Source of the DNA: a virus
Taxonomy: Duplodnaviria > Caudoviricetes
DNA length: 63,264 nt
Strand: one strand, 5' to 3'
Virus record (IMG/VR): IMGVR_UViG_3300033076_000316
Coordinates: 1-63,264 of that record
Part shown: one piece after another, positions 50,483 to 59,696 of the stretch
Layout: every line of letters begins with the position of its first letter
Position numbering within the stretch: the first letter of the stretch is position 1
The notes under the pieces: generated by a model
What the model was told of the DNA's origin: nothing
What the model saw: the letters and a program-made list of their open reading frames with translations, nothing else
The model's database searches: none
Made by a program: the position numbers and the translations under genes

Positions 50483-51232
50483 CTAGCCTACTTTACTATA
50501 GGTCCAACGTTCAATGGCACAGTGAGTCTGCTCCTCAGCAATGTCATTAGTAATTCCAAATCGTCCTAATAGAGATGCCGTAACTGCCACAATTCCAGAA
50601 CCTCCGAATGGGTCTAGAACCACATCACCCTCTATGGTGAACATCTCAATAAACCTACGAGCTACTTCCGAGTTCATAGAGTCCAGCATGAAGTACGTCT
50701 CAGATAGCTTTTGGTCCACTATTGAATCAAGATTATTAAATCTAAGATTCCAGACTGGATTGCTGTACATTCCTGCAAATTTTTCATTACGAATGAATTC
50801 GACATTGTCAGTGAGTTCCTCACTTGGCTTACGAAAGTGATACCAATAAGTTAGGCAGTTTCTATCAATAGTCTTAAACTCTGGTTCTCCCGACTCCATA
50901 GCACCGTAAGAGTTCTGTACGACCGTATCCAGATAAACGAACTCTCTAGCAGAAATGACCTGACTCACATATGCCGAGTCAAATCTGTCGCTAGTCGAGT
51001 TAGCAATGACGAGATTTCCTCCAGGCTTAAGTACCCTGTACATCTCCCTAGTCGCCAGTCTGAGCTGCCTAAGCATCGTCTGCCTGTCATTAGAAGCGTT
51101 TATTTGTAGAGAGTCATCTCCACCAAATCTTCCTACCGATTCTTCAATGTACGGAGGGTGTGTAATGATTAGGTCTACGCTCTCATCCTCTAGAGATAGA
51201 GCAAGAGCGTTCTCAGTAAGGAACTGAATCAT
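50483..51232 (-). CDS. SAM-dependent methyltransferase, beta-class N6/N4 DNA MTase-like
   Basis: DLIITHPPY, RVLKPGG, VLDPFGGSG. Confidence 0.8.
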   Translation of the reverse strand: MIQFLTENALALSLEDESVDLIITHPPYIEESVGRFGGDDSLQINASNDRQTMLRQLRLATREMYRVLKPGGNLVIANSTSDRFDSAYVSQVISAREFVYLDTVVQNSYGAMESGEPEFKTIDRNCLTYWYHFRKPSEELTDNVEFIRNEKFAGMYSNPVWNLRFNNLDSIVDQKLSETYFMLDSMNSEVARRFIEMFTIEGDVVLDPFGGSGIVAVTASLLGRFGITNDIAEEQTHCAIERWTYSKVG

Positions 51233-51867
51233 AATTTAATCATTTTACTTAGGTCGTCTGTAACGCCCCAGCCATCGTCGTACCACGGAGTAGGCATCCG
51301 CTCTACTGAGTCAGCTACGCCAGGATGCAAAATAGGAGACGCCATGTCTGGCCTAGCAGTATGAAACATAGGCACAGTATATCTACGACCAGTTACAGGC
51401 TTCACTCCATGAAGGTACTCGTGACCACCGCAAGGAAACATGACAACATCTCCGCACTGAGGCTTGTAGTAATATCCCTGATTTGGAAAATAGATTTCCC
51501 CACCTTCATAGCCGTCGTTTAGGTACAGTACTGATGAGAAGATTAGGTGCTCATACCCATCGTGAGAATCTGTGTGAGCCATACTTTTTGCCCCTGGCTT
51601 ATTCCAAAGAGAAAGCCATCCCTCACGGGTGTACAGCGGGTACAGGTATCCGTGAAACGAGGCTTGCTCAGCTAGGACCAGGTCAGAATACTTCTTTACA
51701 AAGTCAGAGCACTCTGGGTCTGCTTCAGGAACCACCCAAACATCCTCATTGCCATTAAATTCCTCTAGACGGTTGTTTGCCTCATACTTATCTACTAAAG
51801 CTACCGCCCTAGCGCAGTCCTCTTTTGATACGAAATTGTGAATGATTTTTACTCGAAAGTTATCCAA
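51229..51867 (-). CDS. 2OG-Fe(II) oxygenase (prolyl hydroxylase-like)
   Basis: HTD, LYLNDGYEGGEIYF, HGVKPVTG.RY. Confidence 0.92.
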   Translation of the reverse strand: MDNFRVKIIHNFVSKEDCARAVALVDKYEANNRLEEFNGNEDVWVVPEADPECSDFVKKYSDLVLAEQASFHGYLYPLYTREGWLSLWNKPGAKSMAHTDSHDGYEHLIFSSVLYLNDGYEGGEIYFPNQGYYYKPQCGDVVMFPCGGHEYLHGVKPVTGRRYTVPMFHTARPDMASPILHPGVADSVERMPTPWYDDGWGVTDDLSKMIKL

Positions 51868-51876
51868 TTAATGCTC

Positions 51877-52050
51877 CTAGAATGAGTGAAGTGGTTTTTC
51901 CTTGCTACCGTATCCATCTCCTGGCTTGAATTCCCAGCCGTATACCTCACGGAATATCTCAGCTCGTTCTCCATGCCACAAAGGCCGTCCAAGTTCCTTT
52001 TCCTTAGCTTCAATCAGCTCATGGACTTTCATCATGTTTTCTACTGACAT
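51877..52050 (-). CDS. hypothetical protein
   Basis: Likely start MSVENM immediately after the SufT-like stop. Confidence 0.6.
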   Translation of the reverse strand: MSVENMMKVHELIEAKEKELGRPLWHGERAEIFREVYGWEFKPGDGYGSKEKPLHSF

Positions 52051-56312: not shown

Positions 56313-56315
56313 TTG

Positions 56316-59300
56316 TTATCCGTTCATCACCAGCATTGTTATTCGAGTAATTTCTACGCCACTGTGGTCCTCTAGCGCCTTACCAATGATACAGCCCTGC
56401 TTATTTCCAGTCTGTGCTACTCCTGGAATCGCTGAAGAGACCAATAGGTCACCCTTCTTAACCTCTCCAGTAACACGAACGCGTACACGTCCAGCAAGAC
56501 CTACAGAGGCATAGTCACGGTCATCGTTACCGTCACCAAGACCACCAATACAGTGAGCAAAGTCGTCTGAGTAAACACCTACGACCATAGGGTCATTTTC
56601 TCCAGAAGACTTGACGTATCCAGTCCCATTAGGATTAGCTGCCACAACATCTCCGAATAGAAGTTCGTGGTCGTCTTTCTTGAAGTACTCTGCGTAGTCA
56701 TTGTAGACAGCGTTATAAATCTTAGTGGCGTATAGGTAGCCCTCGTAGTTCAGGCGAGTTGTAGCTGACGGGGCAGTAGTACCTGAGTTCCAGGTGCTAG
56801 TTCCAGCCAGAGTCGAGATGTTCGAGTTACCGAACGAGCCCGACCAAGTACCAGAGGTAATGGTTCCGACAGAGGTTAGGGACGAACTAACCACTGTAGA
56901 GTTAAGAGTTGTTCCAGTAAGAGTTCCAGCAGCAGCTGTCACCGTTATGTCTGCAGAACCATTGAATGATACACCGTTAATACTACGTGCCGTTTGGAAA
57001 GTAGTTGCAGTAGTAGCGTTACCACTTAGCGCACCTTCAAAGGTTCCAGCCTTTAACGTGTCATAGGTAACTCCAGTAAAGTCAACTGTAGATGTGCCCT
57101 CTTCGACACCATTAGAGAACAGCTTCCATTTTCCATCGGTGTGGTCACGTACAAAGCCCGTGTGCTTGTGACTACCAACAGTTCCACCAACAGTTCCATA
57201 CGCACCGTAGAAACCAATGTCAAGCGCATCTGCAGCGTACTGGTTATCTGCTAGATAGATAATGGAGTCACTTACAGCAAGGTTAGTGGTGTTTACCGTG
57301 GTAGTAGTTCCATTGACAACAAAGTTACCTGAGATAGTCAGGTCTCCACCAACGTACGCGCTCTTGGCAACTCCCAGACCACCAGAAAGAATAAGCGAGC
57401 CACTGCTAGTATTTGTGGCATCGGTAGTGTTGGTAATGCTCACAGCCGTCGATGTGGTAGCTCCACGACCAGTTACTGTCGCCAGAGTGTCTGATTCTGA
57501 AGTTAGGTAAGTGTTTGTGTCGAGAGACCACGTATTAGCAGCGGTCTTCTTTAGCAAACCAGAAGTTGCAGAGATAGAGGCAATAGCATCTAGGTCAGCA
57601 TCCCAAGCCTGAACTCCTCCAGTAGAACCTACTGTAATTCCAAGGCTGGCTGCAGTAGAGCTCCCTGAGTTAGTTATCGGGGCTGAGACAGAGATTATCC
57701 CACTAGGACCAGTTGGTCCAGTGGCACCAGCTGTTCCTGTTGAGCCAGTAGGCCCAGTAGGTCCCTGAATTCCGTCAGGACCAGTAGGACCAACAGAACC
57801 AGTAGGTCCAGTAGGTCCAGTTGCTCCAATCGCACCAGAAGGTCCAGGTATGCCTTGAGCTCCTGTTGGACCAGTAGGACCTTCAGAACCTATTGCTCCT
57901 GTAGGACCTGTAGGGCCAGTTGCGCCAGTAGGGCCTTGAACTCCCTGAGAGCCTTGAGTTCCTACTGGGCCTTGTGCGCCAGTAGGTCCTGTAGGGCCTA
58001 CATCACCAGTGGCACCTGTAGGTCCTGTTACCATAGAGTCTGCGCCAGTTGGACCAGTAGGGCCTGTTGGACCAGTTACGGTAGAGGCGGCACCTGTAGG
58101 TCCAGTAGGTCCCGTAGGACCAGTCTCTCCCTGAATACCTACAGCACCATCAAGGTTTACTGTCCAAGATGAGTATGTTCCAGTGCCCAGTTTGCTGGTT
58201 GCTATAAACGTTAGCTCACCACTGGTTACAAAATACGTTTCTACTGTTCCGTGTTGGATGTGGGCGGCATCATACGCCAAAATAATCGACTGACCAGTCG
58301 AGTAGCTTAAGTCAGTGTCAATAAGTACGGTTATAGAACCGTTATTTGCAAGTTCAAAAGTTGTGGTTGAAGTCGATGCATAAACGTTTCCGTTAATACC
58401 TGGAATGCCCTGAGGGCCAGTAGGTCCCGTAGGACCAGTAGCTCCGTCAGCACCAATATATCCCGCAGCTCCAGCAGGGCCAGTTGCGCCAGTAGGGCCT
58501 GTAGGTCCCGTAGGTCCCGTATGACCAGTGGGTCCCAGATTTCCTTGAATACCTTGGCTACCCTGGCTTCCTTGAGGTCCAGTAGGTCCAGTAGGTCCAG
58601 TTGGACCTGTTGGACCAGTAACTCCATCTAGACCGTCTAAACCTGGAGCCGCGGCGGCAAATACCATTGTCCAATCAGATGAAGTAGGCTGAGCAGATGT
58701 TCCTGAAACGTTCAAAACTTCATATAGCCCAAAAGCCCAACCAAATCCTCCAGCAGATTGAAGCCGTAGCCTTCCATAGTAGACCACATCCGAGGTATTA
58801 TCCGAAAAAGTAACGTATTGGCCATCTGCCCAAGGCTCGTGTGAAGCGTGATAGCCAAAATCTTGGGGACCTGCTCCTATGGATAGATTAGTTGGAGCAG
58901 ACACATTTCCTGAAAAAGATATCGGTAGCAGACCTAGTCCAGTAGGTCCAGTAGGTCCAGTAGGCCCAAAGTCTCCAGCAGGACCTGTAGGTCCAGTTAC
59001 TCCAGTAAAGCCTTGAGGACCAGTAGGTCCAGTAGGACCTGTTGGACCATGAACTGCTGGAACGTTAACCCAAGCCTGCAGTCCCGAATCAAAAGCGATG
59101 ACATCTCCATCACCCAAAGTAGCAGGGTTAACTAGAATGTCTCGAAGTTCTCCGAAGGTAGGAAGAAACTTAGGGTAAACCAGAATCTCACCTGCAGAGG
59201 CATCTTGCGTAAGACAGACACCTACAGGAGTACCAAAGTACACTCCTGTAGGAAATTCTGCGGTCAGCTGCCCATTACCAGTGGTGAAAATCAGTTGTCC

Positions 59301-59696
59301 CTCAGGAAGACCTGATGTATTTAAGTTGTGAACAATACCGTAGGTGGTTACGTAACCGAGCTCCCCTGGAGCGATATCCTGAGTCAGAATACCCAAGAAG
59401 CGCTCAGCAGAAAAATCATTAGTGTTAGTCGTATAGTCAACAACAATGTTGGAGCTGTCTGAACCAACGATGTATACCGCGGTTCCATTAAACAGTGTCT
59501 GACTAGAACCATTCTTAACTAACTGATTGAGCTCTTGTCCAATCTGGAGATTAGCACCGCTGTCCTTCATCTTGAACTCTAGAGTTCCATACTCTGCGTT
59601 CCAGGCTAGCTCACCAGGCTGCGATGAGCGACGGTCGCTTGTAACATCCACCTGCACCGCAGGTGCGTGGATTGGTGTTAAAAACTTCTTGCTCAT
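56316..59696 (-). CDS. long collagen-like fibre protein with C-terminal chaperone/peptidase-G2-like domain
   Basis: Three Gly-X-Y blocks dominated by GPT; C-terminal DYAEYF...GDVV...VGLAGRV...KGDLLVSS...IIGKALE. Confidence 0.85.

Follow-up and report, generated by a model that had tools for sequence, protein, structure and literature searches.

We found that the virus record IMGVR_UViG_3300033076_000316 of IMG/VR (63,264 bases; this whole stretch is called the window here) carries a gene for a radical S-adenosylmethionine (radical-SAM) maturase of the SPASM type directly before a gene for a large cysteine-repeat protein, and that such a gene pair is a recurrent phage module. In the window, the pair lies within a block of fibre genes and is followed by genes for iron-sulfur (Fe-S) proteins. 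The enzyme belongs to the TIGR04115 family, the module is conserved in related loci, its context is that of a phage, no exporter accompanies it, and an Nfu gene is linked to it within the window's own clade. The best reading of these data is the thioether stapling of a fibre-associated protein, with Fe-S delivery supplied by the phage for an aerobic host, and we consider the chances of this reading to be about even.

The maturase gene (54852-56312, minus strand, 486 aa) reached 378.7 bits on the TIGR04115 model, for which the cut-off is 350, and 379.6 bits in a second search. Thus, the family numbers TIGR04115/TIGR04114, which a preliminary description of this DNA had given, are correct. The next-ranked models are all of thioether-forming enzymes, namely the PapB-type model NF047865 (175.3 bits), the QhpD-type model TIGR03906 (136.3 bits), and the SCIFF model TIGR03974 (120.5 bits). 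The model of anaerobic sulfatase maturases, TIGR03942, gave 70 bits, and the enzyme is therefore a TIGR04115 maturase and not a member of that group, which the preliminary description had named as the alternative. Among 27 aligned homologues, the CX3CX2C motif (C72/C76/C79) is invariant, and so are seven C-terminal cysteines in the SPASM pattern (C316, C334, C383, C386, C392, C395, and C414), though the Pfam SPASM domain was not among the Pfam matches of the enzyme. Among solved structures, 5wgg/5why is the closest (E 4.1e-21), and Dieter et al. name it as CteB (PMC13692751). In addition, the 63-kb record has no other Radical_SAM match, and no match to TIGR04119, a CXXX repeat peptide maturase with a SPASM region only, was found in the record at E <= 0.01. 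Three homologues of the enzyme (P0033, P0071, and P0080) are 774-806 aa long and include intein and LAGLIDADG domains (PF14890 and PF14528). The radical-SAM open reading frame (ORF) of another locus (L025, 2362-4737) is 791 aa long.

The gene adjoining the TIGR04115 enzyme begins at the stop codon of the enzyme and encodes a 259-aa protein (54073-54852, minus strand). As had been described, it has exactly 40 cysteines, and every one of them lies within residues 1-147. The spacings between them are 25 CX3C, 13 CX2C, and one CX4C, far beyond chance, which bears out the claim that the enzyme's neighbor is a CXXX-type cysteine-repeat protein. The repeat region consists of 27% Cys, 27% Gly, 17% Ser, and 17% Thr, and its unit is approximately C-[ST]-G-[TG]. 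The protein scored 17.0 bits on TIGR04114, for which the cut-off is 20. From about residue 150 to residue 259, a helical domain of roughly 110 aa is conserved in an alignment of 22 homologues. The AlphaFold2 model showed four helices in this C-terminal domain, with a predicted confidence (pLDDT) of 67-87; the model of the repeats (residues 1-143) had a pLDDT below 50 and is unusable. At E <= 0.001, the model had no fold match among the 30 listed from PDB or the 82 listed from BFVD. An exhaustive HMMER search with the C-terminal domain gave 34 matches at E <= 0.001, and nearly all of them were cysteine-repeat proteins or their fragments. Four long HMMER matches, to proteins with Cna_B or CHU_C repeats, were judged spurious. 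Thus, the PDB, BFVD, and HMMER searches showed no homology to a known virion protein and no homologue other than cysteine-repeat proteins, and tblastn of the C-terminal domain against GenBank phages gave no match. Furthermore, there is no signal sequence in the protein.

The preliminary description had reported a co-oriented, nearly gapless run at 51229-59696, and all of the genes that it named are indeed present on the minus strand, with spacers of -58 to 13 nt. The run starts with a gene for a collagen-like fibre (56316-59696; 1126 aa; Pfam Collagen 117.9 bits), whose stop lies 3 nt before the start of the maturase gene. The maturase gene in turn overlaps the cysteine-protein gene by 1 nt. 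Then follow genes for an 88-aa protein of unknown function (53793-54059; no Pfam, NCBIfam, or PHROG match), a 163-aa accessory protein (53305-53796), an Nfu-type Fe-S cluster carrier (52925-53299; 124 aa), a single-cluster 4Fe-4S ferredoxin (52405-52947; 180 aa), and a DUF59/SufT-like Fe-S assembly protein (52052-52462). A putative 74-aa ORF (51877-52101), known from the ORF list alone, and a gene for a 2-oxoglutarate (2OG)-Fe(II) oxygenase (51229-51867; PF13640 38.1 bits, cut-off 27) end the run. From the fibre gene to the oxygenase gene, the successive spacers are 3, -1, 13, -4, 5, -23, -58, -50, and 9 nt. Contigs from public sequencing runs of two studies, one of which (run X1) may be the window's own source sample, bridge the genes of the module. 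Contigs of run X2 join the Fe-S genes to the genes of the 163-aa and 88-aa proteins (52221-53834, 0 differences), and the junction of maturase and fibre genes is bridged by contigs of both runs (X2, 55906-57678; X1, 53451-57171). Thus, the linkage is not an artefact of assembly or a chimera.

Related loci were collected. There were 2257 homologues of the maturase at E <= 1e-30 among 5319 candidates in the protein database, and the named ones came from Bacillota. A pattern scan of IMG/VR gave 384 stretches, 372 of them with a gene for a relative, and a scan of GTDB species genomes gave 222 stretches, 195 of them encoding a relative; the fetched GTDB stretches were almost all from anaerobic Bacillota. 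Scans for close relatives in IMG/VR and metagenome contigs with the single maturase protein found none, and alignment-based scans succeeded. For the analysis of loci, 80 of the IMG/VR stretches and 80 of the GTDB stretches were fetched. ORFs were called in 162 loci by simple longest-ORF calls, and the 153 loci with a radical-SAM ORF are the base of the locus counts below. A cysteine-rich CXXX-type ORF was found within 3 kb of the radical-SAM gene in 115 of these 153 loci, so that the pair of enzyme and substrate is conserved across related phages, as the interpretation of the preliminary description required. It was found in 71 of the 78 loci from virus collections and in 44 of the 75 genomic loci, on the same strand in 99% of the cases.

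Ten neighbors of each radical-SAM gene were clustered and the cluster representatives annotated, and this separated two types of locus. In the phage type (110 of 153 loci), clusters of fibre-like, baseplate, or endolysin genes occur at most five genes away. None of these 110 loci has an ATP-binding cassette (ABC) transporter, and 77 have a cysteine protein with its own domain. The bacterial type comprises 17 loci, all of them genomic, with an ABC transporter and short peptides; canonical TIGR04116 is present in 16 of them, and none has a phage marker or a domain-bearing cysteine protein. Thus, the claim that the window locus has no exporter or leader peptidase holds, and exporters are confined to the loci outside the phage context (0 of 110 against 17 of 17). 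The only peptidase found in the window is an M23 domain in a 687-aa protein of the tail region. A full bacterial set is seen in locus L002, which encodes a cysteine-repeat protein with a twin-arginine-like N-terminus, a TIGR04115 enzyme, a TIGR04119 protein (235.3 bits), and a TIGR04116 protein (104.6 bits).

The phage-type loci are compact. The gap upstream of the radical-SAM gene has a median of 16 nt and is at most 50 nt in 90 of 106 cases, and in 89 of 106 the radical-SAM gene shares its strand with its upstream neighbor. Fibre genes flank the module on both sides in the window and in its closest phage relative, the IMG/VR locus L004. Another IMG/VR phage (L017) has one radical-SAM gene and three genes for paralogous cysteine proteins (11303-12010, 14762-15436, and 16185-16769), each after a fibre-like gene. 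The phage-type cysteine proteins are 54-513 aa long (median 228), and the length of their repeats is variable. The repeats precede the domain of about 110 aa in 27 proteins, as in the window, and follow it in 67; another 40 consist of repeats only. By phmmer, the N- and C-terminal versions of the domain match each other and nothing else in the loci.

The two small proteins between the cysteine protein and Nfu differ in their distribution. Among the 162 loci, the 88-aa protein had phmmer matches in L004 (8e-35) and in L084, a Brevibacillus prophage (3e-14), only; a homologue also occurs in locus L165, and the protein is thus conserved only in the window's clade. An ESM Atlas search with it gave only leads below 0.9. 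The 163-aa protein belongs to a family of 13 loci. In hhalign comparisons, this family aligned with a phage family of 87 loci (about 111 aa) at 86.6%, and the latter aligned with TIGR04116 members at 97.4%. The direct comparison of the 163-aa family with TIGR04116 gave only a weak 10.5%, and NCBIfam gave the 163-aa protein no match. It is probably, as judged from these alignments, a distant relative of TIGR04116, the 'CXXX repeat peptide modification system protein'. Its AlphaFold2 model (mean pLDDT 78.6) has one strand, a long helical hairpin, and a beta-hairpin, and none of the 244 PDB matches to it reached E <= 0.001. The predicted complex of the 163-aa protein with the C-terminal domain of the cysteine protein had a score of 0.09 and a mark of 0.32, and was counted neither way. 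A Cys/His-rich C-terminal tail was seen in the 163-aa protein (53305-53400) and in its homologues in L004 (12881-13405), L084 (11207-11626), and L165 (6782-7228). In the window, the tail is an alternating His/Asn/Asp run. Such tails are missing from the relatives in prophages of anaerobes and co-occur with Nfu, and the tail may bind metal. In addition, the window does not have a protein of about 147 aa that is found in most near relatives. The 74-aa ORF at 51877-52101 has no family match and no homologue in the related loci.

The Fe-S genes of the run had been assigned as Nfu, ferredoxin, and SufT, and the domain assignments proved sound, each scoring above its cut-off: PF01106 for Nfu (58.5 bits, cut-off 27), PF13370 for ferredoxin (42.2, cut-off 24.5; PF13459 also gave 37.2, cut-off 22.4), and PF01883 for the DUF59 protein (49.7, cut-off 23.5). 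The equivalog models were not reached. The window Nfu lies below the cut-offs for NifU and NfuA, and the DUF59 protein scored 51.8 against 202.6 for SufT (TIGR03406) and 58.1 against 143.4 for the SUF-associated DUF59 family (TIGR02945). The CXXC motif of Nfu is CGSC, and the ferredoxin has the ligands CX2CX2C...CP. The end of the ferredoxin ORF overlaps the listed start of the DUF59 ORF, and therefore one start or end may be miscalled; the DUF59 ORF probably starts further downstream than listed. The window ferredoxin is extended at its C-terminus by about 100 aa, the last of which are a Gly/Cys run, and its homologue in L004 (114 aa; 4e-46) is without this extension.

Across the 162 related loci, Nfu occurred only in L004 and L084 and ferredoxin only in L004, and no locus had a SufT-like gene. 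In L004, whose maturase is 66% identical to that of the window, the order of genes is fibre, radical-SAM, cysteine protein, a 145-aa protein, the 88-aa and 163-aa homologues, Nfu, ferredoxin, and a carrier of the IscA/ErpA type (TIGR00049, 119.9 bits), which stands where the window has the SufT-like gene. In L084, the order is radical-SAM, a 148-aa protein, cysteine protein, the 88-aa and 163-aa homologues, and Nfu. L165 (67% identity) shows this order as far as the 163-aa homologue, where the contig ends. In a FastTree phylogeny of 71 radical-SAM sequences, the window, L004, and L084 formed a clade with a support of 100, which was sister to prophage sequences of Clostridium, Desulfocucumis, and Desulfosporosinus. 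Nfu is directly downstream of the module only in this clade, and the three Nfu proteins have in common an N-terminal extension of about 45 aa. IMG/VR scans with the single Nfu and SufT-like proteins found nothing, and the scan with the Nfu alignment found only the contig of L004. Thus, the Fe-S supply that the preliminary description had proposed is borne out in part: Nfu is co-conserved and ferredoxin recurs in L004 alone, and the SufT-like gene is unique to the window.

On these data, we propose that the module is a late structural-operon unit of a myovirus, in which the TIGR04115 enzyme would act on the cysteine-repeat protein encoded directly after it. Many of the 40 thiols would probably be converted into intramolecular thioether bridges, of the ranthionine or sactionine type, which would turn a floppy chain of Gly, Ser, Thr, and Cys into a stapled rod that resists reduction. 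That the enzyme performs thioether chemistry on this protein is likely, by analogy with characterized systems and from the family scores. The helical C-terminal domain of the substrate and the 163-aa TIGR04116-like protein would probably serve in recognition or chaperoning. The product would remain a protein, a component of the fibre or fibre tip alongside the neighboring fibres, and no peptide would be exported. We consider the cysteine protein to be fibre-associated because of the fibre genes on both sides, the paralogues in L017, the variable repeats, and the lack of a signal peptide, exporter, or leader peptidase; its location in the virion, suggested by gene context, is evenly balanced in our estimate. 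Nfu, and in the window also ferredoxin and the DUF59 protein, would load or repair the three 4Fe-4S clusters of the enzyme and reduce it. Nfu-type carriers and SufT mature Fe-S and radical-SAM enzymes in bacteria (NfuA and LipA in Escherichia coli; Nfu and SufT in Staphylococcus aureus), and Brevibacillus is an aerobe. In our reading, Nfu was gained once, followed by variable extras, in the one clade in which the oxygen-sensitive three-cluster enzyme met aerobic cells. That the Fe-S genes serve the radical-SAM enzyme is somewhat more probable than otherwise. In its boldest form, the proposal is that the cysteine protein is a true virion fibre or tip whose shaft is a ladder of thioether staples, in hundreds of uncultivated Bacillota phages, of which one lineage gained an Fe-S kit; this form is tentative, and we would put it slightly below an even chance.

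Several observations weigh against the stapled-fibre proposal. Among 50,697 GenBank phage records, no cultured phage with the module was found. Many of the IMG/VR loci are near-identical, so the locus counts overstate the number of independent events. The 'fibre-like' cluster of 105 loci is a heterogeneous single-linkage group, and the specific C-terminal domain of the window fibre lies upstream of the radical-SAM gene in only 11 of 153 loci; for these two reasons, an initial description of the cluster as fibres with an autoproteolytic chaperone C-terminus was dropped. The helical domain of the cysteine protein matched nothing known in PDB, BFVD, or HMMER searches and has no significant domain in common with the fibre proteins. 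At the acceptor positions, Gly, Ser, and Thr predominate, in place of the Asp, Glu, or Gln that the characterized CX3D and CXXQ/D motifs have. As to the Fe-S genes, the SufT-like gene is not co-conserved (0 of 162 loci), and other Fe-S clients may exist because the record is estimated to be only 66% complete. The 2OG oxygenase, which the preliminary description had counted in the run, is present and adjoins the module, and no homologue of it was found in the 162 related loci, so it is not co-conserved.

The most serious alternative is that the product is cargo, a RiPP-like (ribosomally made, post-translationally modified peptide) modified protein outside the particle, which would be released by lysis or act inside the cell in metal handling, competition, or exclusion, and which would merely ride in the fibre-lysis region. 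The prophage modules do sit between tail-fibre genes and endolysin or holin genes, at the fibre-lysis junction that is a classic site of cargo genes. Moreover, the helical domain stands N- or C-terminal to the repeats in homologous forms, as a leader or follower recognition domain would, and the family's bacterial branch forms a peptide system that has ABC exporters. However, no exporter was seen in the 110 phage-type loci, and the window protein has no signal sequence, in contrast to the twin-arginine-like N-terminus of the bacterial protein of L002. The size of the substrates, the fibre genes on either side of the module in the window and L004, and the tight same-strand spacing also argue against cargo. 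We regard it as unlikely, with roughly one chance in four. A different doubt concerns the reaction itself: the enzyme might make formylglycine-like or dehydro residues, or links other than thioethers, as reactive handles by which the protein would be bonded to fibres. The anaerobic sulfatase maturases are relatives of the family, which the 70 bits on TIGR03942 reflect, and the residues at the acceptor positions are small. Nevertheless, the thioether-forming families scored far higher, a recognition motif of the sulfatase type was not seen in the repeats, and the nearest experimental analogue yields ranthionines. Such a chemistry is the least probable of the alternatives and would surprise us greatly.

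The Fe-S genes raise two further alternatives. One is that the cysteine-repeat protein binds metal or Fe-S clusters loaded by Nfu, ferredoxin, and SufT, and that cross-linking is not its main fate. A repeat region with 27% Cys in CX2C and CX3C spacings, the adjacent Nfu, ferredoxin, and DUF59 genes, and the His/Cys-rich tails of the 163-aa protein and its relatives would fit this, and metal binding was raised for another cysteine-rich protein, CrpA, by Dieter et al. (PMC13692751). However, the Fe-S genes are nearly absent elsewhere, with the counts given above, and the constant partner is a radical-SAM enzyme, for which a metal-binding protein has no need. We therefore hold this alternative to be highly improbable. 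The preliminary description had also considered metallation of a virion component; as a general function this is unlikely, because about 150 related loci keep enzyme and substrate without the Fe-S genes. The other alternative is that the Fe-S genes have no relation to the radical-SAM enzyme and, as auxiliary metabolic genes of a general kind, raise the Fe-S supply of the host. This would agree with a SufT-like gene that is unique to the window, a ferredoxin in one relative only, and an incomplete record. What speaks against it is that Nfu comes right after the module in three genome backgrounds of one radical-SAM clade, that the three Nfu proteins have their special N-terminal extension in common, that the IMG/VR scan with their alignment led to the contig of L004 only, and that the record has no second Radical_SAM match. 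Thus, this alternative appears improbable, though less so than the metalloprotein.

Comparison with known systems helps to place the module. NCBIfam has listed the families of the enzyme, the target, and the accessory protein by name for years, and Haft and Basu reportedly defined the CXXX-repeat families in 2011. Like that system, the window has an enzyme in TIGR04115, a target with Cys at about every fourth residue, and a probable distant relative of TIGR04116. However, it is without TIGR04119 and an exporter, whereas the bacterial locus L002 has all four families. Its target is not a short or Tat-signal peptide but a protein of 259 aa with a helical domain of about 110 aa, and the module lies in a phage fibre block and is joined by Nfu, ferredoxin, and DUF59 genes.

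Among characterized enzymes, the maturases PapB and CteB are the best-scoring relatives, though the window enzyme (175.3 and 120.5 bits) is under the cut-offs of 340 and 425. PapB works on repeated Cys-X3-acceptor units, and the substrates of PapB and CteB are short peptides that bear a leader and have Asp or Thr as acceptors. Unlike what we propose for the window, their products are exported natural products. QhpD is a radical-SAM/SPASM enzyme that installs thioethers in the small subunit of quinohemoprotein amine dehydrogenase, a part of a larger assembly. The window enzyme is below the QhpD cut-off as well (136.3 bits against 453), and QhpD makes three defined links, not dozens in a repeat array. 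As for the Fe-S factors, the window has an Nfu domain with CXXC and a DUF59 domain as in Nfu/NfuA and SufT, and their proposed role would be cluster delivery or repair for the radical-SAM enzyme; here they are phage-encoded beside the presumed client, and they fall short of the equivalog models. The locus also differs from a ranthipeptide or sactipeptide cluster, in which a short precursor with a leader is accompanied by a protease, an exporter, or both: its precursor has 259 aa, and no ABC transporter was found in the window or in the 110 phage-context loci.

The nearest experimental analogue is found in the archaeon Methanococcus voltae. There, CrpC (TIGR04463), a SPASM radical-SAM enzyme with three 4Fe-4S clusters, puts ranthionine links on CrpA, a repetitive Cys-rich protein of 28.8 kDa (Dieter et al. 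2026, PMC13692751). Its product remains a protein, and recognition occurs via a terminal region outside the repeats (PMC13692751). The window pair is alike in that a SPASM radical-SAM enzyme is encoded beside a large repetitive Cys-rich protein. However, CrpC is from a different radical-SAM family, and the window enzyme gave 61 bits on TIGR04463 against a cut-off of 525. In addition, the Crp system, as far as it is described there, is archaeal and cellular, has a 17-residue unit and CXXQ/D acceptors, and shows no fibre context or Fe-S helper genes. The same paper cites the quinohemoprotein amine dehydrogenase as a thioether-bearing protein subunit (PMC13692751).

In the literature, we found no prior description of a phage CXXX/radical-SAM fibre module; this applies to main texts, and supplements such as Supplemental Data set 1 of Dieter et al. 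may list phage-borne examples. The accessible parts of PMC13673991 and of a preprint (bioRxiv 10.1101/2024.01.22.576618) do not link ranthipeptides to phage fibres, neither PMC10352776 nor PMC10114670 mentions repeats of the CXXX or Cys-rich kind, and PMC12801897, in its accessible part, is unrelated to phage radical-SAM fibre modules. Thus, four features appear to be new: the module lies in a block of phage fibre genes, its substrate has the size of a protein and a domain of its own, the phage type is separate from the bacterial type with exporters, and Nfu and ferredoxin have been added. If the stapled-fibre proposal is true, this would be the first virus structural protein cross-linked by a radical-SAM enzyme. 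It would add to isopeptide chainmail and disulfides a new covalent reinforcement of virus particles, made by radical chemistry in a reducing cytoplasm. An enzyme family known from RiPPs would thereby move to structural biology at the scale of proteins, for which CrpC/CrpA of 2026 is the sole experimental precedent that we found. Many clusters of Clostridia that were called from the presence of this radical-SAM enzyme may be prophage fibre modules and not peptide natural-product clusters. Furthermore, the Nfu and ferredoxin genes would be a natural experiment on what a three-cluster radical-SAM enzyme needs in air, and a helper set for heterologous expression.

The fibre protein upstream of the maturase has tail-fibre PHROG matches of up to 203 bits. 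Its C-terminal domain weakly resembles the autoproteolytic chaperone domain of the phi29 gp12 type (Peptidase_G2, 18.4 bits, below the cut-off of 25). Many skips and back-joins inside its collagen repeats (57700-59050) were seen in the contigs of public runs, and the true number of repeats is uncertain because of them; they are probably assembly noise driven by the repeats, or collagen repeats of other organisms. The best PDB match of the 2OG oxygenase is prolyl 3-hydroxylase 1 (8k0e, E 3.4e-5), and the oxygenase fits the collagen-like fibres better than the module because it is prolyl hydroxylase-like. Together with genes at 45641-46633, 49437-50477, and 48466-49164, it forms a possible collagen-modifying set beside the fibre gene, all on the minus strand. 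One glycosyltransferase of this set matches Pfam 'GlcNAc' (PF11397, 75.9 bits), which we take to be the family of the Skp1 hydroxyproline GlcNAc-transferase, and a protein with a family 2 glycosyltransferase domain and tetratricopeptide repeats matches phrog_13126 (382 bits). From such matches, the collagen-like fibres may be hydroxylated and glycosylated. A gene of the N6/N4 DNA methylase family (50483-51232, minus strand; PF01555, 73 bits) lies between the oxygenase and a glycosyltransferase, an odd site inside the fibre block.

The window as a whole is from a myovirus with its own replication genes (PolA, SNF2 helicase, DnaB, primase, RecA, and ThyX), and all of its long ORFs are on the minus strand. 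The module is located between a fragment of the major head protein (62843-63247; phrog_1357) and the genes of the tail sheath (40971-42482) and tail tube (40309-40956); a baseplate J gene is at 31914-33776. The labels 'head-tail adaptor' and 'neck gene', previously given to the flanking ORFs, are not supported, as these ORFs have no such PHROG or Pfam match. The sequencing runs that contain the window stretch are labelled riverine metagenome, and no RNA run is among those listed. No tRNA gene was detected in the window, and 40000-63264 had no megablast match among GenBank phages. The closest cultured relatives of the sheath are those of Streptomyces phage BRock (36%) and Bacillus phage BCD7 (31%), and because of this resemblance the host is probably Gram-positive. 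In addition, a small ORF resembling HNH endonucleases (44315-44620, minus strand; phrog_99 and others) lies between the fibre block and the sheath gene.

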